Source of the DNA: Gemmatimonadota bacterium
GTDB lineage: Bacteria; Gemmatimonadota; Gemmatimonadetes; Longimicrobiales; RSA9
Length of the DNA: 21,178 nt
NCBI GenBank assembly: GCA_040905425.1
Contig: JBBDRO010000058.1
Coordinates: forward strand, 7,693-28,870
Reading direction: 5' to 3'
The translations under genes were made by a program, and so were the position numbers. The notes beneath the pieces are model-generated. The model saw only the letters and a program-made list of their open reading frames with translations. It was not told the origin of the DNA and made no database searches. This document shows, one piece after another, positions 4,207 through 21,178 of the stretch. Position 1 is the first letter of the stretch. Each line of letters opens with the position of its first letter.

Positions 4207-4638
4207 CTAATGCTCTTCCGCCCCCTCGTGCTCCACCAGGATGCCGGCCACGATACGCACGAAGGCATCGACCGGCTCGAGCCCGCGGAGCGCCGTGACG
4301 GCGCGCTCCAGGTCGAGGCTCACGTATTCGTGAACGATGATGTTGCGGAAACCGGGCAGCAGGGCCAGCTCATCGATGAGTTCGGGCGAGAATTCGCTAT
4401 ACGCCTCCAGGGCGCGCACGGCCTCCGTATAATCCTCGAATCGCCGTCCTTTGCGCCCGGCCAGTTCACCGGCAATGTCGATGACCAGTTGCGCAACGGT
4501 GAGGAGCGAGAAGAGCACGTCATTGTGCAGGGAAAGGTTGTTCCGTAACGCCGCTGCGTCGGGGACGCGCTCGCGCAGGGCGTGCAAGTGCAGCAGGTGA
4601 CGCCGGAGCTCTGCCAGCCGTTCTACCAGGTAGGTCAC
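4207..4638 (-). CDS. hepT: HepT-like HEPN RNase toxin (DUF86)
   Basis: RX4HXY motif (FRNIIVHEY); 4-bp overlap with the nucleotidyltransferase gene. Confidence 0.9.
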   Translation of the reverse strand: MTYLVERLAELRRHLLHLHALRERVPDAAALRNNLSLHNDVLFSLLTVAQLVIDIAGELAGRKGRRFEDYTEAVRALEAYSEFSPELIDELALLPGFRNIIVHEYVSLDLERAVTALRGLEPVDAFVRIVAGILVEHEGAEEH

Positions 4639-5060
4639 CGCCGGAGCGCGTCCAGCTTGGTACGCCGTACACGGCGCAGGAAGATGTCCAGGTCCGCGGC
4701 GCGAAGCTGGATGTCCCGGACGTACGCGTGGTCCGCCGCCGCATCTGCGCAGTGGACACGTTGACCGCGCACCACCACGGCTCGGCCCAGTTCCGGCGGG
4801 GCATCGTTGAGGATCACCACGTCCACGTCATTCCGGTCGAGCACATCTACCAGCTCAGCGCCAAGGCGCACCCGCACGTCGAACCGGTCCGCCGCGAGCG
4901 GGTAGCGCCCGCGATCCAGTAGCACGCCCACATCCACGTCGCTCTCCCGGTGGCTGCGCCCCTCGGCATGGCTACCGAAGAGGTAAGCGGAGAGCACTCC
5001 GGGCGGCGCGGCGGCCGCGAAATAGGCGTGCAGTCGAGGGCTGAGTGGCGTGGCGTCCAT
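4635..5060 (-). CDS. mntA: MntA-like minimal nucleotidyltransferase antitoxin (type VII TA)
   Basis: YLFGSHAEGRSHRESDVDVGV (GSX10DXD), plus VDVVILNDAPP. Confidence 0.9.
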   Translation of the reverse strand: MDATPLSPRLHAYFAAAAPPGVLSAYLFGSHAEGRSHRESDVDVGVLLDRGRYPLAADRFDVRVRLGAELVDVLDRNDVDVVILNDAPPELGRAVVVRGQRVHCADAAADHAYVRDIQLRAADLDIFLRRVRRTKLDALRR

Positions 5061-5273: not shown

Positions 5274-5302
5274 TTGACCCGGCTACGCCAATGGCTTACA
5301 AT
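5274..5302 (+). promoter_or_regulatory. Sigma70 promoter for a leaderless brnT transcript
   Basis: TTGACC-17 bp-TACAAT, 7 nt before ATG 5310. Confidence 0.75.
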
Positions 5303-5309
5303 AACGCCT

Positions 5310-5600
5310 ATGGAATTCACCTGGGAAGAAGGCAAGAACCGGGCGAATCGACGTAAGCACGGTATCTCGTTCGAGGAGGCGCGGGAACTGTTCGCCTCGG
5401 GGGCGGACTACCTCGAGCTCTACGACATGGCCCACTCCGACCTGGAAGAGCGCTTCATTGCTATAGGACCGGTTCGCCGCGGGTTGATTCTCGTCGTATG
5501 GACCGAGCGCGAAGAGGCTACGATCCGGATTATAAGCGCTCGCTATGCCACCCCACGCGAGCAAACCATTTACCACTCGTACATGGATAAACGCCCATGA
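5310..5600 (+). CDS. brnT: BrnT family toxin (DUF497)
   Basis: MEFTWEEGKNRANRRKHGISFEEA...EERFIAIG...IRIISARYATPRE. Confidence 0.92.
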   Translation: MEFTWEEGKNRANRRKHGISFEEARELFASGADYLELYDMAHSDLEERFIAIGPVRRGLILVVWTEREEATIRIISARYATPREQTIYHSYMDKRP

Positions 5601-5896
5601 CCGAAATCCCCGAAATTCCTGAACTAACGGAAGAGGATCTCGCCCGAGCGATTCCCGCGCGGATCCGCAAGCGGTTGCTCCGCGGAGAAGTCGAATCAGG
5701 CGCTGACATCGTGGCCCTACGACGATTTGTCGGGCTCACACAGGTTGACTTCGCCAAAGCGATCGGGATCAGCGTCCATACCCTCCGCAATTGGGAGCAG
5801 GGTCGGCGGTCGCCCGATGGCCCGGGCCTCGCCCTGCTACGCATTGCCGCTCGGCACCCGCGCATCATCCGCGAGAACCTCGAATCCGCCGCCTGA
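5597..5896 (+). CDS. Antitoxin with XRE/HTH_3 domain
   Basis: ALRRFVGLTQVDFAKAIGISVHTLRNWEQGRRSPDGP; acidic N-terminus; ATGA overlap with the toxin. Confidence 0.88.
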   Translation: MTEIPEIPELTEEDLARAIPARIRKRLLRGEVESGADIVALRRFVGLTQVDFAKAIGISVHTLRNWEQGRRSPDGPGLALLRIAARHPRIIRENLESAA

Positions 5897-6014: not shown

Positions 6015-7289
6015 TCACCCTGGCTCGGCGATTCGCCACCGGACCAGGTAGACGACGTCCACCTCGTCGCGCACGGTGCCGTAGACGAACGGGTGGTCGT
6101 AGGCGTACATGCGAATCCCGGGCGCGGCTGTGAAGCGGCCCACGAGACCGCCGCCGGAGTCGAACACGTCCCAGTCGGAAGCGTCCCCGCTCTCGAAGGG
6201 GTCAGGGTCCATGTCGGCCCGGTGGACGAGAAGCCGCCCCCCCTGATCGGCGATCAGGTACCCGATGATGGGCCGGAAATCCACGTGGCCGAGGCCCCGG
6301 ATGTCGTTCCGCCACATGTCGTACGCCAATTTCGACTCGCCCTGGAGCGCGCCCCGGGCCTCGAATTCCTCCACGTTACGACGGATTTCGGCCTCCATGT
6401 CCTCGTCGGTCACGGGGATCCGCTCGATCCGGCGCGTTACGCCCGGGCCACGGCTTCCGTCGGGGTGCCACTCTTCGACTTCGTAATCCCCCGAGTGGCT
6501 GATGAAGACGCTGCCGTCCGTAGAGATTGCGGTCTCGACTGGGGGCGAAAGCATGGCCATGCGCAGGAAGCCGATCTCGCCGACGAGGAATTCGTCCGGG
6601 TGGACGGCCGTGGCGAAGGGCGGGCCGAAGGAGCCGGTGGCGGGGTCGAAGACGCGGGCGTGGGTGGTCTGGTTGAAGGGGCCGCGTACCACGCCCGCAC
6701 CCCGCGGCCCGTTCCCGTAGACGGGACGGACCCGCTCCGTGACGAGCCAGCCCCTTTCGGTCCAGGCGGCCGACCCGATCGGGATCCGACGCTCGTCGGC
6801 CGGGCCCTCGTAGGCACGCGCGTCGATGAACTGGCCTTCGATGTCGAAGACGTGGTAGAGCCGCCCGTCAAAGACGATCACGGAGTCCGGACCGACCGCG
6901 ATGGCCGAGACTATCTGGAACGCCCCGGGACCCTCCCCGCGCCCGCCATACGTGTATCGGTGCGTGCCGTCGGCTGCGAAGACGCGGATCGACCGGTCCC
7001 TCGAATCGAAGACGTGGACGTCGTCACTTGGCGCGACCGCGACCGCGACCAGGCCGATCGAGGTGAACGTCTCCTCCTCCGGTCCGTCCAGCGACCCGAT
7101 CCGCAGGTCCTCCTCGAGCTCGAGGCGGGGCACGTTCGCGTCGGATACGGCAGACGCCATGGAGCCGTCGCTCACCGTCGAGTCGCCGCCCTCGGGACCG
7201 CAGGCGAGCAGGACGAAGGCGGTAGCTACGAGCGCACGAGCGGCAACGCTACGGCGGGAGGTGTCGGGATGCCGCGATGCTCTGATCAT
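6015..7289 (-). CDS. 6-bladed beta-propeller lipoprotein (A)
   Basis: Lipobox LLAC; LEEDLRIGSLDG, GGRGEGPGAF; C-terminal GTVRDEVDVVYLVRWRI typical of this family. Confidence 0.85.
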   Translation of the reverse strand: MIRASRHPDTSRRSVAARALVATAFVLLACGPEGGDSTVSDGSMASAVSDANVPRLELEEDLRIGSLDGPEEETFTSIGLVAVAVAPSDDVHVFDSRDRSIRVFAADGTHRYTYGGRGEGPGAFQIVSAIAVGPDSVIVFDGRLYHVFDIEGQFIDARAYEGPADERRIPIGSAAWTERGWLVTERVRPVYGNGPRGAGVVRGPFNQTTHARVFDPATGSFGPPFATAVHPDEFLVGEIGFLRMAMLSPPVETAISTDGSVFISHSGDYEVEEWHPDGSRGPGVTRRIERIPVTDEDMEAEIRRNVEEFEARGALQGESKLAYDMWRNDIRGLGHVDFRPIIGYLIADQGGRLLVHRADMDPDPFESGDASDWDVFDSGGGLVGRFTAAPGIRMYAYDHPFVYGTVRDEVDVVYLVRWRIAEPG

Positions 7290-8373
7290 GGTGGCGATAT
7301 GCTACGTTCAGGGATGCGGAGTGAATCTGTAGCGCTGTACAACATGCACATCGAGATCCCCGCGCTTCATGCCCAGGATGTAGTCCTCACCGATCTCAAA
7401 GATTCGCTCCAGAGCGGGCAACTCGACCCGCGCAATCGCACCCTCCGCATCGTGCACGATGGCAAACTGTGTCGAGTCCTCGGTCCCAACCGCCCAGATT
7501 CGCCCTGCCGCATCCACGTGCAGACTTTCGAACGCCGGAGTGAACTCCGGCCGGCCCCATGCGGTCAGATCGCGTTCAACCGCCTCCGGTCGGCGGGAGC
7601 GCTGAACCATGGAACCGCGTATCTCAGCCCACATCTCATCGGTGACGGGACGCCGGGAATCGAATAGCTCGAACTCCCTTTCCACGTGATCCGCGTCGTC
7701 GTAAATCCGTACTAACGGGCTGTTGGTGTTTTCGGCCACCACGATCCGCAACGGAGATCCCCCGGCAGCAACCGCGGGCCTGGCGTTGAAAGGCATGTTC
7801 TGAAAGGAACTGCTACCGGCCAGGATCTCGTCAAATGGGAAGTCGCCGAACTCCTGCTGGGTGCTATCGGCGTATCGCACGAGCACGGCATGCGGTCGAT
7901 ACCGCCCCGAGGACGGCGGTGGCGCCGATGGTCCATACCTCGGCACGACAATGGATCCGTCCGGCAACAGATCACCTTCGTGCCTGACCCTGTGCGCGTT
8001 GGAGGGACGCTCGCCGAGGAAGTCTCCCGCGGTTGACCAGAAGCTCAGTACGTCACGGACGTAATCCCAGGCCACCACACTGTCCCCGGGCACAAGCTCC
8101 AGCGCCCAAGGTGCGCGAAATTCCCCCGGTCCCTCGCCACGGCGGCCTTGAACAGTCCGCACCGATCCATCCGGATCAAAGAAGCGGATCTCGAATTCGC
8201 GCGAGTCCAGCACGGCGATCCCACCATCGGGAAGGACGAGCGCATCCTGTGCAGATCCAAAGCGCTCCGCAGGCGGGGCGTCAACACCACCGAGGCTTAG
8301 CTCCGGGGTTTCGGCAACGGTCCACACAGGCAGCTCGGGCACCGGTGAAGCATCCTGGCAGGCAAGCATCATG

Positions 8374-10349
8374 CCCATCTTCGACAGTTGCCGGGTACTC
8401 GGCCTCTGAAACCCGTTGGGACACAACAAACCGGACCTGAGCCGGTGCAGAATGTAGTGCCACAAACCGTGTAGACCGTATGGTGTATATGGATGCTACG
8501 CTTGTGGTTTTCGAGCATCGGATGTATCCTTCCGTGGTGGCAACTTAGCCTCGGGAGGCCGGATGTTCGTTCGGACCAAGCGATCGGGGCAGTACAGTTA
8601 CCTGCAGGTGGTCCATAATGAGCGGGTGGATGGCCGCGTCAGGCAGCGCGTCATCGGGACCCTCGGCCGTGTCGACGAGCTTCAAGCGAGCGCGCAGCTG
8701 GACGGTCTGCTGAACTCGCTGGGTCGGTTTGCCGATCACAGCGCTGTCCTGAGCGCTCACCGTGCGGGCGAGACCGAGGTGGAGGAGGCGCTGCGTATTG
8801 GCCCGGGCCTGGTCTTCGAGCGGCTGTGGCGAGAGTGCGGCATCCAGCGTACGCTGGAGCGGCTGCTCCAGGACCGGAAGTTCGAATTTTCCGTGGAGCG
8901 GGCCGTGTTTCTCACGGTGCTCCATCGGCTCTTCGCACCCGGCAGTGACCGTGCAGCGGAGATGTGGCGCGAGCGCTACCGGATTGAGGGCAGCGAGGAG
9001 CTCCAGCTCCAGCACCTTTACCGCGCCATGGCCTGGCTGGGGGCTGAGTTGCCGCCCCCGCAGCAGGTGGGCGCCACGCCCTTTGCTCCGCGCACCACGA
9101 AGGACGAGATCGAGGAGGGGCTCTTCCAGATTCGACGTGACCTGTTCTCCAGCCTGGATCTGGTCTTCTTCGATACCACCTCGATCTATTTCGAGGGTCG
9201 CGGCGGCGAGACCCTCGGCCAGAGGGGCCACAGCAAGGACCATCGCCCCGACCTGCCGCAGATGGTGGTCGGGGCCGTGCTGGACGCAGCGGGGCGGCCG
9301 CTGTGTAGCGAACTCTGGCCGGGCAACACCACGGATGTGCGAACGCTGGTACCGGTGGTGGATCGGCTCCGCACCCGCTTCGGCGTCCACGAGCTGTGTG
9401 TTGTGGCCGACCGCGGCATGATCAGCAAAGGCACGATCGAGGCCCTTCAGGATGGAACGCGCAACGTGCGCTACATCCTGGGTGCGCGCATGCGTCGCGT
9501 GAAGGAGGTCCGCGATGAGGTGCTGGCGCGAGGGGGCCGCTACCGGGAGGTGCGCCCTCCACGGCAGTCCAGCAAGGGACCCGCCCCGCTCCAGGTGAAG
9601 GAGGTCTGGGTCGAGGATCGCCGCTACATCGTGTGCTTGAACGAGGAAGAGGCACGCAAGGACCGACTCGACCGGGAGGCCATCGTAGCCTCCCTGGAAA
9701 AGAAGCTCAGCCAGGGAGAGAAGGCCCTGGTAGGCAACAAGGGCTACCGCCGCTTCCTCACGTCCACCGGCAACAGCTTTCGGATTGATCGGGCGAAGCT
9801 GGAACAGGAGGCCCGCTATGATGGCAAGTTCGTGCTCCAGACCGACCTCGATCTGGACGCCGCCGACGTGGCGCTCCGCTACAAGGAACTGTGGCAGGTC
9901 GAGGCCGCCTTCCGTAGCGTCAAGTCCGTCCTCGACACGCGCCCCATTTATCACCAGAAGGACGAGACCATCCGCGGCCATGTCTTCTGCAGCTTCCTCG
10001 CGCTGGTGCTGCTCAAGGAACTGCTGCATCGCATGGAAGAGAAGGGCGGGCACGTGGAATGGGCCAGACTACGCGAGGACCTGGATGCGCTGGAAGAGAT
10101 GAAGGTGCGTACCACGGGTCGATCCTTCATCCTGCGTACGCCGACCCGCGGCGACGCGGGACGTGCCCTGCAGGCGGCCGGCGTGGCGCTCGGACCCTCC
10201 GTCCGCTTGCTGAGCAGCGATCCATGAGGGCGTAAGGAGCAAGGACAGAGGCGTGGAGCGGGCCCGGGCAGCGTAGTGCCAAGGCCCCGAAGCAGTCCCG
10301 TAAACTATTTAAAGGGCGGAGCTTACGTTTTTCAACTGTCGAAGATGGG
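8374..10349 (+). mobile_element. IS1634-family insertion sequence, 1976 bp
   Basis: Perfect 17-bp IRs CCCATCTTCGACAGTTG (8374-8390) and CAACTGTCGAAGATGGG (10333-10349); 5-bp target duplication TCATG (8369-8373, 10350-10354). Confidence 0.95.
8563..10227 (+). CDS. IS1634 family DDE transposase
   Basis: 554 aa; FFDTTSIYF, GHSKDHRPDLPQ, VADRGM, YKELWQVEAAFRSVKS, RPIYH, IRGHVFCSFLAL; GGAGG RBS. Confidence 0.95.
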   Translation: MFVRTKRSGQYSYLQVVHNERVDGRVRQRVIGTLGRVDELQASAQLDGLLNSLGRFADHSAVLSAHRAGETEVEEALRIGPGLVFERLWRECGIQRTLERLLQDRKFEFSVERAVFLTVLHRLFAPGSDRAAEMWRERYRIEGSEELQLQHLYRAMAWLGAELPPPQQVGATPFAPRTTKDEIEEGLFQIRRDLFSSLDLVFFDTTSIYFEGRGGETLGQRGHSKDHRPDLPQMVVGAVLDAAGRPLCSELWPGNTTDVRTLVPVVDRLRTRFGVHELCVVADRGMISKGTIEALQDGTRNVRYILGARMRRVKEVRDEVLARGGRYREVRPPRQSSKGPAPLQVKEVWVEDRRYIVCLNEEEARKDRLDREAIVASLEKKLSQGEKALVGNKGYRRFLTSTGNSFRIDRAKLEQEARYDGKFVLQTDLDLDAADVALRYKELWQVEAAFRSVKSVLDTRPIYHQKDETIRGHVFCSFLALVLLKELLHRMEEKGGHVEWARLREDLDALEEMKVRTTGRSFILRTPTRGDAGRALQAAGVALGPSVRLLSSDP

Positions 10350-10381: not shown

Positions 10382-10596
10382 GGCTGTGCCATGGACACAC
10401 TCCTGGCGGGGGCTCCGCCCTGGGGAAGCCAGCGCCAGATGAACACGGGGAACCCACAACGCTAGCGGGTTGGGAGGGGGCAACAGGCTACGGCACGGAG
10501 GGACCCCCCATTTCTACCCTCCGGCTTTTCGGAGGGTAAGATCTTTCTGTTGCTGCCCTCCCCCCTGGCGCATTCGCACCGCCGCCTTCGGCATCT
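10382..10596. repeat. Copy 1 of the repeated module (sigma/MFS intergenic region only)
   Basis: Aligns with about 13381-13605 and 17936-18158 (shared CCGCCCTGGGGAAG, GCGCCAGATG, GGCTACGGCAC, CCCTGGCGCAT); more diverged than the other two copies. Confidence 0.85.
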
Positions 10597-10676: not shown

Positions 10677-11711
10677 CTATCGGCGCAGGTCGGCAATCAC
10701 CACCGAGGGTACCGGCTCTTCTGTGCTGAGAAGAAAGCCGTGGTCGCTACTATAATCGTGCATATAATACCAACCGTATATTCGCCCGATGACGTTCTTC
10801 TGGTTTGCATCGATCGAATATACGATGGTAGTCCGTCGGTCAATTGGCTCCCCTGGGCTACCATGCCATTCCGCCCAGTACGTGACTAATGCGGACCTAG
10901 CCAAGCCGGCGGGAAATGGTCCGGTTCCTACCTTCACCGAAAGTAGAGTTTCATTAGCCCGGCCGGGCACCGGTCCGCCATTGGAAGCCGCTGATGAGGC
11001 CTCCGGCGTAACAGAATCCTGTACCGTGGTTATACGCCCCGATTTACAGTCCAACAGCTTCACAGCCGGTAGAAGGTCATGTTCCGCGAACCAGACGATT
11101 GAGCTTCCGTTTGAGGCCGAGAACCCCGGGTGTCGCCATGGTATATACGTACCGGCCAGTTCGGAATCGACCCTGATTGGCGAGGCCTGAGAGGTAGATT
11201 GAACAACAACAGCGACTGCTGAATCCCCAAGACGCCCGTACGCGAAAATCTCGTTGCCTTGACAGGCCGACTCAAGCACCCTTACACTCATCTGAATCGG
11301 GATCGAACTGGATCGGAGACGCGTGCCCTCCCGGCTGAATACCGTTAGCCTGTTGCGATCGTGCGCGACGATCACTTCACTGTCATCCGTGACAGCAATG
11401 GCCCGTGTTGAGTATGCTTCGCCAGGCCCCCCGCCGAACGGAATGAACCGAGCCTCCAATAAACCAGTCGGTCCGAAAATCCAGGCAAACGGGTCCGAAG
11501 CATCCAGCACAGCTATTCCGCCGTTTGGCAAGAACTTGGCCTCTCGAACTCGGGTGAACGTCACCGAAGTTTGACCAACTGCTGGAATAGTCCGAGACCC
11601 CTCCCGGAGGTCGATGATCGCATCTTTCTCCGGGAGGGTGTCATCCACTTCTCCGCACGCTAGCAGGAGCCCTGCTACCGCCAAAGAATGACGTATCGGC
11701 CGACGTACCAT
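10677..11711 (-). CDS. Beta-propeller-type lipoprotein (C)
   Basis: MVRRPIRHSLAVAGLLLAC lipobox; LPNGGIAVLD, GGGPGEA; TGATG coupling to the upstream peptide gene. Confidence 0.8.
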   Translation of the reverse strand: MVRRPIRHSLAVAGLLLACGEVDDTLPEKDAIIDLREGSRTIPAVGQTSVTFTRVREAKFLPNGGIAVLDASDPFAWIFGPTGLLEARFIPFGGGPGEAYSTRAIAVTDDSEVIVAHDRNRLTVFSREGTRLRSSSIPIQMSVRVLESACQGNEIFAYGRLGDSAVAVVVQSTSQASPIRVDSELAGTYIPWRHPGFSASNGSSIVWFAEHDLLPAVKLLDCKSGRITTVQDSVTPEASSAASNGGPVPGRANETLLSVKVGTGPFPAGLARSALVTYWAEWHGSPGEPIDRRTTIVYSIDANQKNVIGRIYGWYYMHDYSSDHGFLLSTEEPVPSVVIADLRR

Positions 11712-11938
11712 CAATCCGGCGGGCAACCAAGAGTGCTGGAGTGGCAAGCATACGTGCACTCGACCTCCTGCTCATCACACTCCACGAGGAAGCAGATGGT
11801 ATCCTCCTCGGTGGGGTGCTCAATGCACGAATCGCAGATATCGTAGCAACCCTCGTCCGCAGCGAGCATGCTGGCGCTGCCCGCGACGAAGAGGAAGGCC
11901 ACGATTCCAGATCCCAGGTACTTCCGCAACAGTCTCAT
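11711..11938 (-). CDS. Small secreted acidic Cys-rich peptide (75 aa, 8 Cys)
   Basis: Strong AAGGAGG RBS; signal peptide MRLLRKYLGSGIVAFLFVAGSASMLAA; mature DEGCYDICDSCIEHPTEEDTICFLVECDEQEVECTYACHSSTLGCPPD. Confidence 0.85.
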   Translation of the reverse strand: MRLLRKYLGSGIVAFLFVAGSASMLAADEGCYDICDSCIEHPTEEDTICFLVECDEQEVECTYACHSSTLGCPPD

Positions 11939-11979
11939 TTGATGCCTCCTTCTAAGGCGTGGATTTGTGAGGCGCCCGG

Positions 11980-12528
11980 TCAATTCAACCATCCGCCAAT
12001 CGGCAGGGCGCGCAACCGATTAACGGCCATGATTCGGGAGAGCCTGAATGAGAGATTCACTCTTGCCGTGGAGTCATGCCGCACAGTCAGATAAACCACA
12101 GATGGTACGTATTGAGCCCGAAGAGAACGCTGGATCACTCCATCTACATCTCTTGCAATCAGGAGGTCGCTAGCAGAGGAAGAGGCAAAGTCTGGGGGGA
12201 GAATTGCGGATGTTGGAGCGCCCTTCACCACCAACAAAACCGAGTGGCCACCGGATCGCGCCAACTGCAATGCAAAGGCGCGGTATCGATCACCATGTTG
12301 TACGCAGCTATTGCACGATGTAGACAGTAGAACAACAGTCAAGTCCACGCTGTCCTCCATAGTAGCGCTTAGCGGCGACATTACTGCCGGAACCCTTCCC
12401 AACTCGCTATCCGGTTCGGGCAGATAGGGGTGACTGCCCTGCTGGAACAATCTGCCTGCCACAAGTACCGCCCCCAATACGAGCAGGCCCAAGCCGGCAA
12501 TGCGGCGGGTTCCAATGGTTGCATTCAA
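11980..12528 (-). CDS. Membrane-anchored thioredoxin-fold (TlpA-like) CxxC protein
   Basis: N-terminal TM segment, VVLLSTSCNSC, DVDGVIQRSLRAQYVPSVVYL with cis-Pro-type motif; probable TTG start at 12528 (GGAG upstream), alternative 12591. Confidence 0.7.
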   Translation of the reverse strand: MNATIGTRRIAGLGLLVLGAVLVAGRLFQQGSHPYLPEPDSELGRVPAVMSPLSATMEDSVDLTVVLLSTSCNSCVQHGDRYRAFALQLARSGGHSVLLVVKGAPTSAILPPDFASSSASDLLIARDVDGVIQRSLRAQYVPSVVYLTVRHDSTARVNLSFRLSRIMAVNRLRALPIGGWLN

Positions 12529-12824
12529 CCGTAGTGGCTCCCTATGCACCGCTGACTCGGTCGCGAAAGATTTTGTTGACGGGAAGGCCACGGCAGTACG
12601 TCACACCGACTCTGGCGGCGTCCAAAGGCATGCTTTGGTCGGCGACACCTTCCCCTGAGGGTGAAGGCATCAATTGGCCTTGGCTGGCACCGCCCTTGGA
12701 CAAGCCCCTACCGCGAGCACCGGCTTCCGAACAGGATGGGGACATGCCGCTCCCTGTTGATGACCGGTCGCAACCCGCGTCCGATCTCGTCCTCGTTCCT
12801 ACCCCTATTAACCCACCAACCCCC

Positions 12825-13391
12825 TTACCCCCCCCCGTCCAAAAAAGAGGACACATCGTCAAACCCGCCGATTCCCCTTGCCAGCAGGGCATTCTTGATG
12901 TTCCCATATGCCGCCGTCTTCCGCTTCTCTAACGCCTTGGGAGTGGCGTTCAGCTCCGCCGCAGCTTCCGCCACGGTGAGCTCCTCGTAGGTCGTGAGCC
13001 TCACGGCGGACCGCTGCCTTGTGGGCAGATCGTCCACGATCTCAGCCAGGAGCCGTTGGAGCGCGGCGGCTCCGATCGCCACGGCGAGCTCGCGCGGCCT
13101 CGGTGTGCCTGCCTCCGGCGCATGGGCCAGCGGCGCCTGCTTCAGCAGTCTATCCAGCATCCTCCACGCCTCCCGACGCACGGCCCGGAACAGGTACCGG
13201 CGGCGTCTTTGCACAGGTACCCGTGCCAGATAATCCTTTGGCAACTTACTGAAGACCTCGTGCACCGCGTCCTAGGCGCGCGCAACGTCATGTAGAATCC
13301 GGGTGGCGATTCGGATCATCTCCGACGCGTGCGCTACGTAAAGCTCCGCGACTTCACGCCTGTCGACCGGGTTGAATGCTGGCTGTGCCAC
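12825..13391 (-). pseudogene. ECF-type sigma-70 factor with in-frame TAG at codon 40
   Basis: AGGAG-7 nt-GTG; ELYVAHASEMIRIATRILHDVARA*DAVHEVF (region 2) and DDLPTRQRSAVRLTTYEELTVAEAAAEL (region 4). TAG at 13272-13274 where the other copy has CAG. Confidence 0.85.
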
Positions 13392-13641
13392 GGACACACT
13401 CCTGCCGGGGGCCCCGCCCTGGGGAAGGCGGCGCCAGATGGACACGGGGAGTCTACAACGCCGGCGGGTGGCAGGTGGGAACCGCGGACGAGGGCGGAGG
13501 CTACGGCACCGTCGCACCCCCATGTTTATGCCCCGGCCGCTCGAAAGGCAAGAGCTTTCTCCTGATACCTCCGCCCCCTGGCGCATCCGCCCCATCCCCC
13601 CATCTTCCCCGCCAGCAAACGCACCGCAGCCCGGAGCCGCA

Positions 13642-13905
13642 TTGCCCCTCACCGCGCGCGACCGCGCCCTCATCCTCACGGCCATCATGCTGGCGCTCTT
13701 CCTGGGCGCGCTGGACCAGACCATCGTGTCCACGGCGCTGCCCGCCATCGTGGCCGACCTGGAGGGGCTGGACCGCTACGCGTGGGTGGCCACCGCCTAC
13801 CTGCTGGCTTCCACCTCGCTGGTGCCCATCTACGGCAAGCTGGCCGACATGCGCAGCCGGCGGAGCATCGAGCTGGTGGCGATGGGCCTCTTCCTCACGG
13901 GCTCC
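13642..13905 (+). pseudogene. 5' fragment of DHA2 MFS transporter
   Basis: Near-identical to the first 88 codons of 18198-19748, then runs into unrelated lower-GC sequence (stop at 13983). Confidence 0.9.
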
Positions 13906-13950: not shown

Positions 13951-15033
13951 TCACCGAGACTCGGACTCCACGATCCGATGTAACCGCAAGGACAGGGAAC
14001 CGTCGTTACGTTGGCTCATCGAATATAAAAGGGAATCCGAGGCGAATCCTCTTATCGGCTCTCTCGACCTGCCGCTTATGATTACTCGTTGAGAGTGCGG
14101 ATCAACGAGTGCTATCACCGAGTCCAAATACTGATGCTCTAGCACTACCATGTCAGTGTTTGTTCTGTCGACGTTCCGATCAGCTGGCGTCCAAGCGGAG
14201 GAGGCGACGAGGCCCACGACCCAGATCAGCCCATCAGAGCGGCAACGTATGGTAGTGATCAAACCTTTTGGCCGCTCCTTCCAAAATTCGACTGATGACC
14301 CGGGCACGTGGCCCTCTAACCAGGGGACATCCAATTCCACGGTGATGGTATCACGCGGATCATGGCGCCACCTAGATAGTGCCAGTTCGCCCACTGGGGA
14401 ACTCCACAAGGTTCCATCGTGACATGCTGTCAACACTCGCCGGGGAGGTCGTCTGACATCTATCACAGAACCTGCAAAATCATACGAGGCCTGTCGAGAG
14501 CCATCCCAGCTAAAACGATGTACCATATAGCCAAAAAGGCGACGCTCCCCTATTAAACTCACGAACGCAAACTGACTATCCGGCAAAAGCCGGAACGATC
14601 TCGCAGTATTATGAACGGCTGAACCCGTGTAGCGATGATTAAAGTTCTCGTCAAATACTACATGGTGCTGCGAAAAAACATGAATGTTTCCTTGATTGTC
14701 AACTTCAAGGCCCCGAACCCGACGGAATTCGTCGGGGGCATCTCCAGAACGGCCAATAGATCTCTGGTATGCGCCGTTCGTACCGAATATAAATACCCTT
14801 CCATCAGGATAGACCGGCGCAACGGCGAAGCGGCCGTCTCGTAGTTGCCGTACCGCTGAAGAATAGTGCAAATCCCCATCGGCATTCGAGACATCCAAGT
14901 CCATCACCGGATTAATTGCCAATGTGTCTGCAATGAAAGCAGACACCGGCACATTAGCCACTTGGCCACCACTCAGGAATTTCACCGCGCAGAGAAGAGA
15001 AAGTGCAGTTGCGAACAGAGGATATCTCGGCAT
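13951..15033 (-). CDS. Secreted beta-propeller-type protein (D)
   Basis: Signal-like MPRYPLFATALSLLC; VFIFGTNGAYQRSIGRSGDAPDEF; SDGLIWV; visibly lower GC. Confidence 0.8.
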   Translation of the reverse strand: MPRYPLFATALSLLCAVKFLSGGQVANVPVSAFIADTLAINPVMDLDVSNADGDLHYSSAVRQLRDGRFAVAPVYPDGRVFIFGTNGAYQRSIGRSGDAPDEFRRVRGLEVDNQGNIHVFSQHHVVFDENFNHRYTGSAVHNTARSFRLLPDSQFAFVSLIGERRLFGYMVHRFSWDGSRQASYDFAGSVIDVRRPPRRVLTACHDGTLWSSPVGELALSRWRHDPRDTITVELDVPWLEGHVPGSSVEFWKERPKGLITTIRCRSDGLIWVVGLVASSAWTPADRNVDRTNTDMVVLEHQYLDSVIALVDPHSQRVIISGRSREPIRGFASDSLLYSMSQRNDGSLSLRLHRIVESESR

Positions 15034-15202
15034 CACAACGGGAGCCCCCTTTGGGTTGATCACTCGCGAATTCTAATGCGGACTGACTCCACTGCCGAAT
15101 ACGAACAGATTCGGGTCCTGGAGGACAAGCTTCCCTGGCAATCAGGTGGTACCGTTCAAGCTCCGCAAATGGCGGGGAACGAAAGCGGACTGCTCCGGAA
15201 CT

Positions 15203-16624
15203 TCACCGCCTGGCGCTGCCCACACTTCGCACGAGCATGACGCGCAGCCCGGCGGTATACCACACCGCCCGCGTATCCTCGAACTCATGGCCCCACCATG
15301 CTTTCAGATCGCCCCAGGAGGTGCGCTCTAGGACCGCTCCCACCTCCAGTTCGGTCGCCGGGCTGCCGAGTCCTACGAGCACGCCCGCCGCCGCTCCGAT
15401 CGGTAGGCCCCACGATGTGATGTGGTTCGGCGTCGACCGACGCGCCACGCCCGCCCGGGCCGCTGCGAACGGCCGCACGGCCTCACCGCCCCACACCAGC
15501 CGCGGCTCCAGGTAAAAGCCCGTGGCGCTCCCCGTTTCCTCCCTGGTCCCCTGGCCGAAGTACGTACCCGCCGCGCCCACGCCGAGCCAGACCCTCGGGC
15601 GCCAGCGCCAGTGCACCTGCGTGGCCCAGCCGAGTCCCGGTGAGGAGAGGCCGTCCACCTGGCCGCCCACGGCCCCGGCGCCGAACGCGAGGGAAAGGTC
15701 CCACAGGGAGCCGCCCCGTGCGTCATGCAGCGCCACGTCGTCCATAGTGTGGCGAAACCACAACGCCACCACGCCGCAGTGGGACCCGGATCCGCCGTAC
15801 GCCGCGGGCAACTCCGCCACGCCACGATAGACCTCGACGGCTTCGATGTCATGGGCCGTGAGCGTCCGCAGCCACATCAGCATGTCCTCTTCGGCCTCGT
15901 CGCCTACCCGCGCCCCACCGATGTAGAGGGTGGCTCGGCAGCTGCCGTCTGCACTGAACAGGCGGGCGGTGTGGCTCCGCAGCATCTCGATGACCGGTAT
16001 GGTGGCCGTCTCTCGGACGCGCACGCCAGGTACGATACCAAGCACTCCGCCCAACCGCATGCTGCCGAGCGGCGCCAGATCCTCGCGGGTGAGGAATTTA
16101 CCCCACGGCAGCGCCATGCGGTCACGGATATCCTGCATGTAGGGAGGCTCGAGCCGCTCCGCCCGGACATCGAGTGGCGCCAGCGCCACGGGTTCGCCGC
16201 GGAGCGCCAGCTCCACCTGCACCACGGCATCTGGGTCGAGCTCGCGTGCCTGCGTCTCCAGCGTGCCAAACGCAATGTGCTCCACCCGCAGCCGGTAGCG
16301 ACCTGCCGTCGGGACCCGCACCGAGAAGACCCCGTTGCCCCCGCTCACGGCACTGGCCACTACAGAATCCGCGCCGGCGGGCAGGACGGAAACCACGGCG
16401 GCCGCGACGGACCGACGGCTGTCGGCGTCCACGACCTGCCCGGTGAAGACCTGGGCAGCCGCCGGGGTGACAGTCATACCGAGGGCGGTCGCCAACGCGA
16501 CCGCCCTCGTGAAGATATAAATGAGGCCTCCATTCCTGCGATTCGGTATGGGGAGCACATGATCCCCGCATGAGAAATGCAAGCGAATCCTATCTGCTTC
16601 TTTCTCCGTCATTATGACGGGCAA
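15203..16624 (-). CDS. Exported protein: carboxypeptidase-regulatory-like domain, TonB-plug-like domain and C-terminal beta-barrel-like region; start uncertain
   Basis: AAAQVFTGQVVDAD...GRYRLRVEHIAF; IEAVEVYRGVAELPAAYGGSGSHCGVVALW; alternating strands GFYLEPRLVWG, WYTAGLRV. Confidence 0.75.
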   Translation of the reverse strand: MPVIMTEKEADRIRLHFSCGDHVLPIPNRRNGGLIYIFTRAVALATALGMTVTPAAAQVFTGQVVDADSRRSVAAAVVSVLPAGADSVVASAVSGGNGVFSVRVPTAGRYRLRVEHIAFGTLETQARELDPDAVVQVELALRGEPVALAPLDVRAERLEPPYMQDIRDRMALPWGKFLTREDLAPLGSMRLGGVLGIVPGVRVRETATIPVIEMLRSHTARLFSADGSCRATLYIGGARVGDEAEEDMLMWLRTLTAHDIEAVEVYRGVAELPAAYGGSGSHCGVVALWFRHTMDDVALHDARGGSLWDLSLAFGAGAVGGQVDGLSSPGLGWATQVHWRWRPRVWLGVGAAGTYFGQGTREETGSATGFYLEPRLVWGGEAVRPFAAARAGVARRSTPNHITSWGLPIGAAAGVLVGLGSPATELEVGAVLERTSWGDLKAWWGHEFEDTRAVWYTAGLRVMLVRSVGSARR

Positions 16625-16625
16625 A

Positions 16626-17282
16626 TCAGAAGGGTTTGAAGTTAGCGGGGCTCCACCAGAACCCTAACGGTGGCAACATCGGGAGCCGTTGCCGGTCAGA
16701 CGCGATTCGGTCCATTTCAGCACCTACCCCACGTCCGACATGATCTGGAAGAACAACTTGGGCGACGACGAGTTCATTGCACCCGATTAGCTGGATAAGT
16801 GAACGTTCTCGATCGAACTCCACTCTGCTTTCCTGAACGAGGCGCAGGATGGCGTGAATCTCGCCGGCGGCAGATGCCTCCTGGATGTCCTCCAGATCCT
16901 CCATAAAGTTGGGACCCTCACAATCCATATGCCACTCCCAGCAATAACCAGGCGCAGAGGAGTTCCCTTCAGCATGCGATTCGGGATCGTCTGCTAACGG
17001 CTCCCCCTCCGCAGGCTGTATGTAATATGCGAATCCTCCATTGAAGAATTCATGGCAAATGGAGTAATTACAACCGCCTACATCTATCGTAGTACAAAGT
17101 TCGCATTCACCCTGTGCCCACAAGCGAGGGGTAGCGGTTAAGAGATTCATCAACAGAACCAGCCCCATCACACGGAGCGCGAGAGCCAGGCGAACGTTCC
17201 AGACCGGCATCGGTGCCGCGCCTTTGATCGAGATTGACGTGAGCCAGAATGCAACGAGCGCGGTAACGAACAAGTAGCCCAT
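16626..17282 (-). CDS. Secreted protein with Cys/His-rich acidic N-terminal domain
   Basis: GGAGG RBS; hydrophobic leader ending LWA-Q; CELC...C...CH...H...GYCWEWHMDC, then helical region and RSLIQLIGC. Confidence 0.75.
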   Translation of the reverse strand: MGYLFVTALVAFWLTSISIKGAAPMPVWNVRLALALRVMGLVLLMNLLTATPRLWAQGECELCTTIDVGGCNYSICHEFFNGGFAYYIQPAEGEPLADDPESHAEGNSSAPGYCWEWHMDCEGPNFMEDLEDIQEASAAGEIHAILRLVQESRVEFDRERSLIQLIGCNELVVAQVVLPDHVGRGVGAEMDRIASDRQRLPMLPPLGFWWSPANFKPF

Positions 17283-17362
17283 TTCGTCCCTCCGATTTGC
17301 GGTCTGCAGCTAAGGGCTAGTGGCTTCCTCGACGTGACGAAACATCTAGTCTCCTACCTCTA

Positions 17363-17946
17363 TTAACCCGCGAACCTCCTTACCCCCCCCCCGTCCAAAA
17401 AAGAGGACACATCGTCAAAGCCGCTGATTCCCCGCGCCAGCAGGGCATTCTTGATGTTCCGATACGCCGCCGTCTTCCGCTTTTCTAACGCCTTAGGAGT
17501 GGCATTCAGCTCCGCCGCAGCTTCCGCCACCGTGAGTTCCTTGTAGGTCGTGAGCCTCACGGCGGACCGCTGCCTTCTGGGCAGATCGTCCACGATCTCA
17601 GCCAGGAGCCGTTGGAGCGCGGCGGCTCCGATCGCCACGGCGAACTCGCGCGGCCTCGGAGTTCCTGCCTCCGGCGCATGGGCCAGCGGCGCCTGCTTCA
17701 GCAGTCTATCGAGCATCCTCCACGCGTCCCGACGCACGGCCCGGAACAGGTACCGGCGGCGTTTTTGCACAGGTGCCCGTGCCAGAAAATCCTCTGGCAA
17801 CTTGCTGAACACCTCGTGCACCGCGTCCTGCGCGCGCGCAACGTCATGTAGAATCCGGGTGGCGATTCGGATCATCTCCGGCGCGTGCGCTACGTAAGCT
17901 GCGCGACTTCACGCCTGTCGGCCGGGTTGAATGCTGGCTGGGCGAT
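17363..17946 (-). pseudogene. ECF-type sigma-70 factor with ATC at the start position and a -1 frameshift near the 5' end (170-aa ORF from ATG 17875 remains open)
   Basis: AGGAG...ATC GCC CAG CCA versus GTG GCA CAG CCA in copy 2; plus-strand CGTAAGCT at about 17893-17900 versus CGTAAAGCT in copy 2. Confidence 0.75.
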
Positions 17947-18078
17947 GGAACGCACTCCTGCCGGGGGCCCCGCCCTGGGGAAGGCGGCGCCAGATGGACA
18001 CGGGGAGTCTACAACGCCAGCGGATGGCAGGGGGAAAGCCGCGGACGAGGGCGGAGGCTACGGCACCGTCGCACCCCC

Positions 18079-18108
18079 ATGTATACCCCCCGGCGCCTCA
18101 CCGGGCAA
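18079..18108 (-). promoter_or_regulatory. Putative promoter of the sigma gene (equivalents at 13522-13551 and 10510-10539)
   Basis: TTGCCC-17-TATACAT, TTGCCT-17-TAAACAT and TTACCC-17-TAGAAAT; spacing is conserved while spacers diverge. Confidence 0.55.
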
Positions 18109-18197
18109 GAACTTTCTACGACCACCGGCCCTGGCGCATCCGTCCCGCCCCCCCATCTTCACCCGGCCAGAGACCCGTACCGAAGCCCGGAGCCGCA

Positions 18198-19748
18198 TTG
18201 CCCCTCACCGCCCGCGACCGCGCCCTCATCCTCACGGCCATCATGCTGGCGCTCTTCCTGGGCGCGCTGGACCAGACCATCGTGTCCACGGCGCTGCCCG
18301 CCATCGTGGCCGACCTGGAGGGGCTGGACCGCTACGCGTGGGTGGCCACCGCCTACCTGCTGGCCTCCACCTCACTGGTGCCCATCTACGGCAAGCTGGC
18401 CGACATGCACAGCCGGCGGAGCATCGAGCTGGTGGCGGTGGGCCTCTTCCTGACGGGCTCCTTCCTGTGCGGCATCGCCGGCGAGTTCGGAGCGTTGCCG
18501 CTCATCGGCGACGGCATGAACCAGCTGATCCTCTTCCGCGCCATCCAGGGGCTGGGTGGCGCGGGCATCTTCGGCATGGCCTTCATCATCATCGCCGACC
18601 TCTTTCCCCCCTCCGAGCGGGGCAAGTGGCAGGGGCTGATCGGCGCCACCTTCGGCGTGGCCAGCGTGCTGGGCCCGCTCGTGGGCGGCTTCCTCACCGA
18701 TCATGGCGGCGGTCTGATCCCCGGAATCGAGGGCTGGCGCTGGGTCTTCTACGTGAACGTGCCGTTCGGCGCGCTGGCCGTCTGGTTCATCGTGCGCCAC
18801 ATGCCGCCGCTCGTGCCGCCGGGGGAGAAGGCGCGCATCAACCGCGTCTCGGCTGCGCTGCTCGTGCTCGGCCTGGCCACGCTCATCACCGGCCTGCAGC
18901 TGGACAAGCTGCGCTACCCGTGGCTGCCGGGCCTCGGACCAGCGCCGCTGGAAGCCTGGTGGACCGGCTGGGTGACGCTGGGCCTGCTGGCCGTGGCGGC
19001 CGCCGCGCTCACCCTCTTCACGCGCCGCACGCTGCGCGAGCCAAACCCCATCCTGCGGCTCTCCCTCTTCCGCAACCGTGTCTTCTCCACCGCCAACGCC
19101 GCGCAGTTCTTCTTCGGTGCCGTCTTCCTCTCCCTCATCCTCTTCCTGCCGCTCTTCATGGTGAGCGTGGTGGGCGTCTCCGCCACGCGCGCGGGCGTGA
19201 GCCTGATCCCGCTCTCACTCGGGGTGGTGGCGGGCTCCACGCTGGCCGGCCAGCTCGTCTCCCGCATCGGCCACTACCGCCGCATCATGCTGGCGGGCAC
19301 GGCGCTGCTCTTCGTGGGCGTGCTCCTGCTGGCGCGCATGGACGCGGACGTGGCCTACGGCACGGTCACCTTCTACATGGTGCTCTGCGGCCTGGGCATG
19401 GGACCGGCCATGCCGCTCTACGTGTTGGCCATCCAGAACGCCGTGGACGTGCGCTACGTGGGCCAGGCCACCAGCGCCAACCAGTTCTTCCGCCAGATCG
19501 GCGGCATGGTGGGCGCTGCGGTGATGGGCACCATACTGGCCGTGGGGCTCACGGTGGCCGCGGGGGAGGGGCTGACGGTGGGCGCGCCGGGCTCCGCGCC
19601 GCCCCGCGCCTTCGCCGACGCGCTGACACGCATCTTCACGGCGTCGGCCGCACTCGTGGCAGTGGCCGGGCTCATCACCGCCTTCATCCCCGAGCTGCCG
19701 CTGCGCCGCACGCATGACGTGGCGCGCCCGGGGGTGACCGGGGATTAA
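18198..19748 (+). CDS. DHA2 (EmrB/QacA-like) MFS efflux transporter
   Basis: MLALFLGALDQTIVSTALP, WVATAYLL, PIYGKLADMHSRR, FRAIQGLG, GPLVGGFLTD, WRWVFYVNVP; TTG start with GGAG RBS. Confidence 0.93.
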   Translation: MPLTARDRALILTAIMLALFLGALDQTIVSTALPAIVADLEGLDRYAWVATAYLLASTSLVPIYGKLADMHSRRSIELVAVGLFLTGSFLCGIAGEFGALPLIGDGMNQLILFRAIQGLGGAGIFGMAFIIIADLFPPSERGKWQGLIGATFGVASVLGPLVGGFLTDHGGGLIPGIEGWRWVFYVNVPFGALAVWFIVRHMPPLVPPGEKARINRVSAALLVLGLATLITGLQLDKLRYPWLPGLGPAPLEAWWTGWVTLGLLAVAAAALTLFTRRTLREPNPILRLSLFRNRVFSTANAAQFFFGAVFLSLILFLPLFMVSVVGVSATRAGVSLIPLSLGVVAGSTLAGQLVSRIGHYRRIMLAGTALLFVGVLLLARMDADVAYGTVTFYMVLCGLGMGPAMPLYVLAIQNAVDVRYVGQATSANQFFRQIGGMVGAAVMGTILAVGLTVAAGEGLTVGAPGSAPPRAFADALTRIFTASAALVAVAGLITAFIPELPLRRTHDVARPGVTGD

Positions 19749-19761
19749 GCGACGACGCCCC

Positions 19762-21012
19762 TCATCCTTCCTCCGCGCCGGACCCTCCATGATCCATCTT
19801 CGAGATCCGGTACACTCGCACCGTATGGACTCCGAATTCGTCCCTGATTATGCCCCAGACGAGATCACCGCGGAGCCCGCGGCGCATGAATTCCTCCGGC
19901 AGCACGAACCGTCCCTGGTACGCACCGTCCGCCGAGAACAGGTCGTAACCCCACGGTTCCGTCCAGCCGTCATCGGTGCGCACCGACGGCATATGGACGC
20001 CTACGACCATACTGCCATCGTGCCCGAACCACATGCCCCCCGGCCTCAGGATCGGCTTCTCACGAGGCAGCGTCGGACTGCGCTCCAGACCCAACATTTT
20101 CGCGAACTCCTCCATAGTCTGGGCGTGGACCTCCGGTTGCATCAGGACCGGCTCGGCCGGCCGCTCGATGACAAGCGTGTCAGGCCAAGGCTTCCCGGCG
20201 GCCTCGATCGGAACGATCCCGATCCGGTACTCGCCCGTACAGGCCCTGGCGAAGCGGCCTGCGGACCAAACTGTTGCCTCAAAGGGTCCGAATGGAAATC
20301 CGACTGAATTCTCGCACGCTTCTCGCCGGACCCATGCAACGTCGTCCTCTGTGGGGCGGCTCGGCACCGGGATCCGAATCGAATCGAGGGTTGCGCCCTC
20401 TTTGATCCGGAGGAGCCAGATCGCGCGCAACTGCCCGGGCCGTCGTCGATTCGAGTCCTTGAGGTAGACGACTCCCGAGCTATCGGCCAGAATGGCCCCC
20501 GGGGCACTTCCCGTAACCCAAGTACGGCGTGAATCCAGAGTCCAGATATCGTCCAATCGACCGTCGTTCCGGTACAATGTCAGCCGATCCGCCAACTCGC
20601 CATCACGCACGATCACGCGGCCGTCAGGCAGTTCCGCCATGCCCGACGGGATACGATACTCCCCTGGCCCTGCCCCTTCCCTACCCACGCGACGGACGAA
20701 TTCACCGGAAGGCGAATAGATCCGCACCATCGGCTCGGCACCCTGTACTACCCTGGCGCGTCCTCCATCGGAGACCCAGACCTCGCCGCCACGGGTGACG
20801 AGCACGTCATTGATTGCCGCGAACTCGTAGTCACGGCCGGAGCGTGTCTCCCCGATTTCGGCAACCAAGTGCACCGGAAGGCGCAAGGAATCGGGCACTC
20901 CAACGTCGACTCGATCGGCCGGCTCTGAACCACAGCCAAGCGCGAAGAGAGCGGACAGTGCCAGTACCATTTCCGGCGCATGCAGGCTATTACAGGTCAG
21001 TAGCCGAGACAT
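19762..21012 (-). CDS. 6-bladed beta-propeller lipoprotein (E)
   Basis: Lipobox ALGC; VGREGAGPGEY; WGIIRDEFGVHTVRVYRI; ATG at 21012. Confidence 0.85.
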   Translation of the reverse strand: MSRLLTCNSLHAPEMVLALSALFALGCGSEPADRVDVGVPDSLRLPVHLVAEIGETRSGRDYEFAAINDVLVTRGGEVWVSDGGRARVVQGAEPMVRIYSPSGEFVRRVGREGAGPGEYRIPSGMAELPDGRVIVRDGELADRLTLYRNDGRLDDIWTLDSRRTWVTGSAPGAILADSSGVVYLKDSNRRRPGQLRAIWLLRIKEGATLDSIRIPVPSRPTEDDVAWVRREACENSVGFPFGPFEATVWSAGRFARACTGEYRIGIVPIEAAGKPWPDTLVIERPAEPVLMQPEVHAQTMEEFAKMLGLERSPTLPREKPILRPGGMWFGHDGSMVVGVHMPSVRTDDGWTEPWGYDLFSADGAYQGRFVLPEEFMRRGLRGDLVWGIIRDEFGVHTVRVYRISKMDHGGSGAEEG

Positions 21013-21044: not shown

Positions 21045-21178
21045 TCAGGTAGCTCCCCCATCGCAAGGGGTGTCCACCTCGGGATCGCAGCAGGTGCACA
21101 GTTCCCAGACCGGTCCGCCTGCATGTCCCAAGCATTCTTGCGCATCAGCCTCGCAGAAGTGGTGTTGCTGCACGCACT
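21045..21178 (-). CDS. C-terminal part of a small acidic Cys-rich protein (partial; not in the ORF track)
   Basis: Frame from 21176 reads CVQQHHFCEADAQECLGHAGGPVWELCTCCDPEVDTPCDGGAT* (7 Cys in 43 aa, no K/R), ending 32 nt before propeller E. Confidence 0.7.
   Translation of the reverse strand, partial: CVQQHHFCEADAQECLGHAGGPVWELCTCCDPEVDTPCDGGAT

Follow-up and report, generated by a model that had tools for sequence, protein, structure and literature searches.

The locus described here raises the question of why a bacterium would couple the gene of a small, exported, cysteine-rich protein to that of a beta-propeller lipoprotein, and what the two products might do together. It lies in a 21,178-nucleotide stretch of a Gemmatimonadota genome, referred to here as the window, for which a first-pass annotation had proposed a two-gene peptide/propeller unit acting as ligand and receptor or as toxin and immunity protein. 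Both genes are real, but a third conserved gene directly upstream, coding for a CxxC redoxin, had been overlooked, as had a broken sigma gene at the head of the cassette. Our results show that the cassette of redoxin, mini-protein and propeller, found in sediment bacteria, is real, conserved, recurring, swappable and undescribed, and the mini-protein and the propeller are predicted to be, probably, matched binding partners. The focal cassette contains the following features.

12825-13391, minus strand: ECF-like sigma-70 gene heading the cassette, with an in-frame TAG at 13272-13274
11980-12528, minus strand: putative membrane-anchored CxxC thioredoxin-fold (redoxin/TlpA-like) protein, from Atlas feature matches
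11945-11949, minus strand: Shine-Dalgarno-like GGAGG in the sequence, 6 nt before the mini-protein ATG
11711-11938, minus strand: exported acidic 8-Cys mini-protein of 75 aa, about 48 aa when mature, from the ORF translation
10677-11711, minus strand: predicted six-bladed NHL-type beta-propeller lipoprotein C of 344 aa, its start overlapping the mini-protein stop

ORF translation bore out the earlier description of the mini-protein as a signal peptide followed by a mature part of 48 aa with 8 Cys, 14 Asp/Glu and no Lys or Arg; 2 His are also present, and Trp is absent (cleavage after residue 27, the signal peptide being called by eye and with a hydrophobicity heuristic). The sequence likewise agrees with the stop/start overlap reported before, the TGA of the mini-protein and the ATG of propeller C having their A in common (TGATG). 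The mini-protein has no family match in Pfam or NCBIfam, a word-based protein search returned no homologue except the protein itself, and its Atlas and structure matches all fall below 0.9 and TM 0.5, respectively. A single-sequence model gave a helix and a beta-hairpin at pLDDT 55, and a defensin-like CS-alpha-beta reading was rejected on the absence of the strand CxC. The three coding genes of the cassette are intact and are covered without differences by contigs of two sequencing runs, one of which is possibly the source of the assembly. Four DNA runs from one study, and none of RNA, are listed for this DNA, and a promoter/terminator scan of the locus was uninformative.

The redoxin stop codon lies 41 nt ahead of the mini-protein ATG; its start codon is uncertain, with the frame open to 12591. 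Atlas feature matches of 0.94-0.96 connect the protein to Thioredoxin_2/Redoxin/AhpC-TSA clusters and its relatives give weak AhpC-TSA/Redoxin matches, while Pfam has no match for the window redoxin itself. By fold family, it is a candidate for a dedicated thiol oxidoreductase beside the mini-protein, and a VKOR is encoded in the same genome. We propose that the mini-protein would be exported by Sec, as its signal peptide suggests, and that the co-encoded membrane-anchored CxxC protein would oxidise the eight cysteines into about four disulfides and could then be re-oxidised by the VKOR. An oxidoreductase partner points towards disulfides rather than free thiols, and this bears on the idea that the peptide is an exported metal chelator acting through Cys, His and Asp/Glu, with a propeller that recaptures the loaded peptide. 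The composition would suit such a role: the 48 aa include 14 acidic residues along with 8 Cys and 2 His, and the net charge per residue is -0.29, whereas the propellers of the genome have a median of -0.03. However, acidity is not conserved, since 3/7 peptides of the subfamily are about neutral, and the cassette contains neither a metal transporter nor a TonB-dependent receptor, so that chelation seems very unlikely to us.

Propeller C carries a lipobox-like LLAC19 whose Cys19 is retained in 45/48 relatives; a signal peptide with a lipobox cysteine makes it a lipoprotein, with lipidation predicted. Pfam and NCBIfam contain no match for it and it does not pass the PF17170 (DUF5128) cut-off, being tied to PF17170-positive paralogues only via jackhmmer profiles (E 1e-19 to 1e-21). 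Its family profile matches NHL domains at 1e-30, and a fold search with its model (pLDDT 83) recovered Brat NHL (VIA Z 24.6, rmsd 3.2, 258 aligned), PAL (Z 21.1, rmsd 4.0, 271 aligned) and NHLRC2 (Z 20.6, rmsd 3.4, 251 aligned). Propeller C is, by this modelling, a six-bladed NHL-type propeller. The jackhmmer family comprises 123 ORFs of at least 100 aa; more than 100 genes of this genome go into a single family of propeller lipoproteins, for which no role is known.

The presence of PAL among the fold matches is one reason to ask if the propeller helps the peptide to mature, displays it or forms a structure with it, be it as a chaperone, as the large subunit of a stable heterodimer or as a PAL-like peptide-modifying enzyme. 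Translational coupling, which suggests 1:1 synthesis, points in the same direction. PAL has conserved His metal ligands and a catalytic Tyr/Arg, but no conserved catalytic-type residues were found in 48 propeller sequences, where no His or Tyr column reaches 60%, and a PAL-type NHL metalloenzyme was rejected on these grounds. Further points against a fixed partner are the lack of a peptide at half of the subfamily loci and the fast change described below for a duplicated pair, which would be unexpected of a fixed subunit; we regard this alternative as fairly unlikely. Complex prediction run on this pair alone, with propeller C residues 20-344 and the mature peptide, scored 0.16 and 0.02 where the mark is 0.32.

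Whether peptide and propeller belong together can be addressed by counting. Twenty-eight ORFs of the genome passed a mechanical filter that required a leader, at least 4 Cys and an acidic composition and that excluded haem and ferredoxin motifs. Of these, 18 have a propeller on their own strand no more than 2 kb away, compared to 5.8% for 20,000 positions drawn at random. With one false call removed from the 18, there remain 17 real peptide genes for 123 propeller ORFs; the 17 are exactly the candidates with a GC of 0.65 or less, a split that was made post hoc. They form two classes, nine short peptides and eight longer Cys/His proteins. All nine short ones are located upstream of a propeller and seven have exactly 8 Cys, while six of the eight longer ones are directly downstream of one. 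Of the eight short-peptide loci other than the focal one, five have a DsbA-like neighbour, and the focal locus has the redoxin instead. Under a stricter filter, peptides were found at 4/114 propellers of the genome, at 8/20 subfamily loci and at none of 250 exported-looking control ORFs, drawn from 368. Pairing of peptide and propeller exceeds chance, and the survey that had been suggested to look for enrichment of small Cys-rich ORFs near propellers came out in its favour. An obligate pair is another matter: 10/20 subfamily loci and about 105 of the 123 propeller ORFs have no such peptide. Because of these filter counts (18/28, 4/114 and 0/250), it appears that the peptides need propeller neighbours, while most propellers stand alone. 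On contig C74 of the same genome, an exported, acidic, His/Trp-rich small protein with 2 Cys only is encoded upstream of a propeller (L055:18146-18469).

The abundance of propellers, most of them without a peptide, and the variation in gene order and partners would also be expected if the genes were loose cargo, that is, co-regulated neighbours in variable islands without direct interaction. Against this, the enrichment is far over background, the stop and start codons overlap, and the redoxin-peptide-propeller triple occurs in four genera of two families, and we consider loose cargo to be highly improbable.

A profile built from 48 sequences of the propeller-C subfamily, with only part of the candidates of each genome scored, identified 20 loci in 19 other genomes, a count that omits three partial matches covering less than half of the model (G393, G241 and G428). 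An adjacent exported Cys peptide was seen at seven of them (G060, G046, G040, G467, G446:C145, G511 and G032), which upholds the claim that the unit recurs and gives the earlier pairing idea, a plausible one, comparative backing; five of the seven belong to one genus. The redoxin is also present at 5/7, in the order of the window in G060, G046, G467 and G511 and permuted in G032; G467 and G511 are absent from the redoxin alignment. Pairwise BLAST between the window and G032 redoxins found nothing, and the two have only CxxC, topology and position in common. The loci that fall into neither group are G509, at a contig edge, G437, with a peptide before a neighbouring propeller, and G476, with peptides before a TolB_like propeller. 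Seven of eight subfamily peptides start with CxxxC, and the G032 peptide has 8 Cys with similar spacing; identity among the peptides is only 17-28% and homology is not established. A peptide profile run over 401 genomes returned 4 training loci and 5 others, all 5 of which were wrong-frame noise on inspection.

Other arrangements were seen along the way. In G476, the TolB_like propeller is preceded by two small Cys-rich ORFs that carry EA(A)C.NGTCC motifs and have no PF14055 match (L108:234-1836), the nearest to a Bacteroidota-type arrangement in this analysis. A second Cys peptide and propeller pair of G032 (L042:632-2013) shares the same IS-flanked island, and G060 contains a small ORF (L038:868-1104) with a leader that we take to resemble a lanthipeptide-type precursor.

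The window itself contains further Cys-rich genes and propellers.

13951-15063, minus strand: propeller D, over the PF17170 cut-off
15203-16624, minus strand: exported protein with CarboxypepD_reg and a Plug-like domain, encoded between propeller D and the long Cys/His gene
16626-17282, minus strand: longer exported Cys/His protein of the second class, with a mature part that contains 7 Cys
19762-21012, minus strand: propeller lipoprotein E, with a 90.7% identical tandem copy E' beyond the window
21045-21178, minus strand: 3' part of a 12-Cys peptide gene, a 5'-truncated tandem copy of the full gene just beyond the window

It had been noted that a Cys-rich gene upstream of a propeller recurs at 21045-21178 and 16626-17282, each time with unrelated sequence. 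The genes are present and the three cases do represent three different peptide classes, but 16626-17282 belongs to the longer class, with a C-terminal domain common to 6 other ORFs of the genome (motif by eye), and 21045-21178 is truncated. In the exported protein between the former and propeller D, the short Plug-like domain gives way to a small, beta-rich region at the C-terminus; L049 and L050 have comparable genes next to propellers.

The 12-Cys peptide and propeller E are duplicated in tandem, the full copy lying just beyond the window. An assembly gap cuts 21045-21178. The one contig that spans it has room for just 81 letters, so that the in-window peptide is 5'-truncated and lacks about the first 36 of 107 codons, signal peptide included. 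Since that contig exists and the summed read depth about doubles over the duplicate, both copies are probably in one genome. Between the copies, the peptide has a dN of 0.30 and a dS of 0.155 (43 codons) and the propeller a dN of 0.05 and a dS of 0.18 (383 codons); the non-synonymous rates of the two genes differ (P 9e-10), the synonymous rates do not, and dN above dS in the peptide is not significant alone (P 0.31). Changes in the peptide are concentrated between Cys8 and Cys27, where 25/54 bases differ against 4/75 elsewhere, and all seven compared Cys are retained (P 0.048). The propeller shows a run of 5 changed residues (P 0.0009), presumably a top-face loop by the NHL blade pattern. This pattern is consistent with what would be expected of a specificity pair, in one non-focal pair with one copy truncated, and relaxed selection or a recombination tract may contribute to the change in the peptide. 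The proposal that peptides and propellers diversify together thus holds in part: one duplicate combines fast peptide change, fixed Cys and a matching propeller patch, but a FastTree of 114 propellers of the genome has low support and is too poorly resolved for co-divergence. The 91% identical duplicate and the defined triple make cognate binding testable with two peptides and two propellers.

The surroundings of the cassette include repeats and mobile elements.

12797-13905, unstranded: repeated cassette head, with the sigma gene, the upstream region and the 5' part of an MFS gene
17363-17946, minus strand: second sigma-like head, start codon lost, with a 1-nt deletion (frameshift) near the 5' end
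10382-10586, unstranded: remnant of another cassette head, beside the IS
8563-10227, plus strand: IS1634-family transposase (NCBIfam NF033559, E 1e-119), downstream of the cassette

The head of about 1 kb repeats at 12.8, 17.4 and, beyond the window, 23 kb; the stretch 12797-13905 is 93% identical to 17352-18461, and more copies exist to the right of the window and on contig C53. Because of its in-frame TAG, the sigma gene of the focal cassette is probably a pseudogene; the copy at about 23 kb is intact, and in the remnant the similarity of the sigma-like frame is gone after four codons. Stops and frameshifts in the copies led us to exclude sigma dN/dS values. Cargo GC is 0.52-0.6 against about 0.7, IS elements are neighbours both here and in G032, and near-identical heads could permit exchange of cargo by recombination. 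Farther to the left, propellers A and B (6015-8465) stand without a peptide beyond IS1634, and the island edge has two toxin-antitoxin-like pairs, a nucleotidyltransferase with a HepT-like protein (4207-5060) and BrnT with an HTH protein (5274-5896); 99 bases of the first pair recur at the right end of the contig. A small Cys/His ORF (1477-1761) upstream of a TonB-dependent receptor (1-1395) may be a metal-sensing leader.

The sigma genes bear on signalling or kin recognition, in which the peptide would be a pheromone-like ligand and the propeller its receptor, with feedback on the regulator of the cassette. The ECF-like subfamily appears to be specific to this genome and to head propeller cassettes: seven copies were found (in the window and on C53, C32, C100 and C9), six of them with a propeller 23-2312 nt downstream and the seventh running off its contig. 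A related sigma gene precedes a 9-Cys exported peptide in G015 (L119:1914-2336), other short-peptide loci come after a sigma-54 activator or a response regulator, and variable loops would suit allele-specific recognition. However, no anti-sigma factor, kinase or other transducer is seen in the cassette, a lipoprotein alone cannot signal across the membrane and the focal sigma copy is broken, which makes a signalling role improbable in our view.

The reading that we tentatively prefer, while giving it somewhat less than an even chance, is of the conflict type: a polymorphic disulfide peptide would be captured by the cognate propeller. Once folded, the peptide would sit on the top face of the NHL propeller lipoprotein translated along with it, with the cysteines as a fixed scaffold and the loops between them conferring specificity; the peptide would be an effector that the propeller captures or neutralises, and the many propellers without a peptide could form a library of binders. 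This is favoured because of the coupling with a strong ribosome-binding site, the co-occurrence and the variable loops on fixed cysteines, and also because of an orphan-like module, the mobile context (low GC, IS), a propeller without catalytic signature and the lack of a signalling transducer. It is weakened because the peptide is missing from half of the subfamily loci, because 17 peptides face 123 propellers, because the fast change comes from one pair, the homology of the subfamily peptides is unestablished and the sigma head is broken, and because most positive loci come from a single genus. The anionic nature of the focal peptide, free of Lys and Arg, which sets it apart from membrane-active antimicrobial peptides, and the absence of a transporter or delivery domain from the cassette weaken it as well. 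No delivery domain or secretion system was found among the window ORFs, and two secretins are encoded elsewhere in the genome.

Several known systems share ingredients with the cassette. Orphan toxin/immunity modules are known from CDI and Rhs, where a variable gene is followed by its cognate partner (PMC3150448). The E/E' duplicate resembles them in that a 5'-truncated fragment and an intact partner lie behind a full pair, although our cassette has no large delivery protein or known toxin domain; the arrangement is one example, and simple tandem duplication also accounts for it. Bacteroidetocins are small disulfide peptides that need a dedicated thiol oxidoreductase for full activity, a likeness that here extends to fold family; their clusters are described with a leader of the double-glycine kind and a peptidase/transporter but lack an immunity gene, and the main text uses neither the term propeller nor the term lipoprotein (PMC6671954). 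A class II bacteriocin or bacteroidetocin cluster was excluded given the Sec-type leader and a single C39 match in the genome, on another contig.

The large subunit of methylamine dehydrogenase is a propeller. In its mau cluster, the disulfide-rich small subunit needs a CxxC helper, MauD (10.64898/2026.03.05.709764). Small protein, helper and propeller partner are the same three ingredients as here, and they speak for a maturation or structural partnership. Unlike that enzyme, the cassette has a six- and not seven-bladed propeller that is a lipoprotein, a hypervariable peptide and no Trp for a TTQ; with 0 Trp in the mini-protein and no MauE match in a genome that is 96.7% complete, this type was rejected. 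NHLRC2 also favours a partnership of this kind, since its thioredoxin-like and NHL domains form one functional cleft (PMC6107167). These domains share one chain in NHLRC2, whereas here they are on separate exported genes with a peptide between them, and an NHLRC2-type protein was rejected for that reason.

Searches of the literature on NVEALA, DUF5128 and combined terms found no description of the cassette, with subscription papers and bioRxiv supplements outside their coverage, and the papers listed, among them those on NHL proteins, deal with other subjects by their titles and abstract starts. In Bacteroidota, neighbourhoods of NVEALA (PF14055), DUF5128 (PF17170) and TolB_like (PF15869) are known, and the first-pass annotation had likened the locus to NVEALA-peptide/propeller neighbourhoods of this phylum. 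As regards NVEALA itself the likeness fails: PF14055 matches neither the mini-protein nor anything else in the genome at E<=1, the motif is absent from the mini-protein, and none of the three window peptides belongs to NVEALA. The cassette also differs in its Sec-type signal peptide, its ECF-like sigma head and a propeller C that misses PF17170. What it has in common with these neighbourhoods is the gathering of a small Cys-rich exported ORF, a six-bladed propeller lipoprotein and a thioredoxin-fold protein, and propeller D of the window, which is over the PF17170 cut-off. We may be looking at a widespread, undescribed recognition system, in which hypervariable mini-proteins on disulfide scaffolds are matched by more than 100 NHL propellers, with cassettes being swapped behind a repeated sigma head and truncated peptide/propeller modules serving as a store of specificities, an extension that we put forward as rather doubtful. 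Cognate binding, if true, would supply natural disulfide scaffolds from a new source, together with their matched binders, and a function for DUF5128-like propellers.
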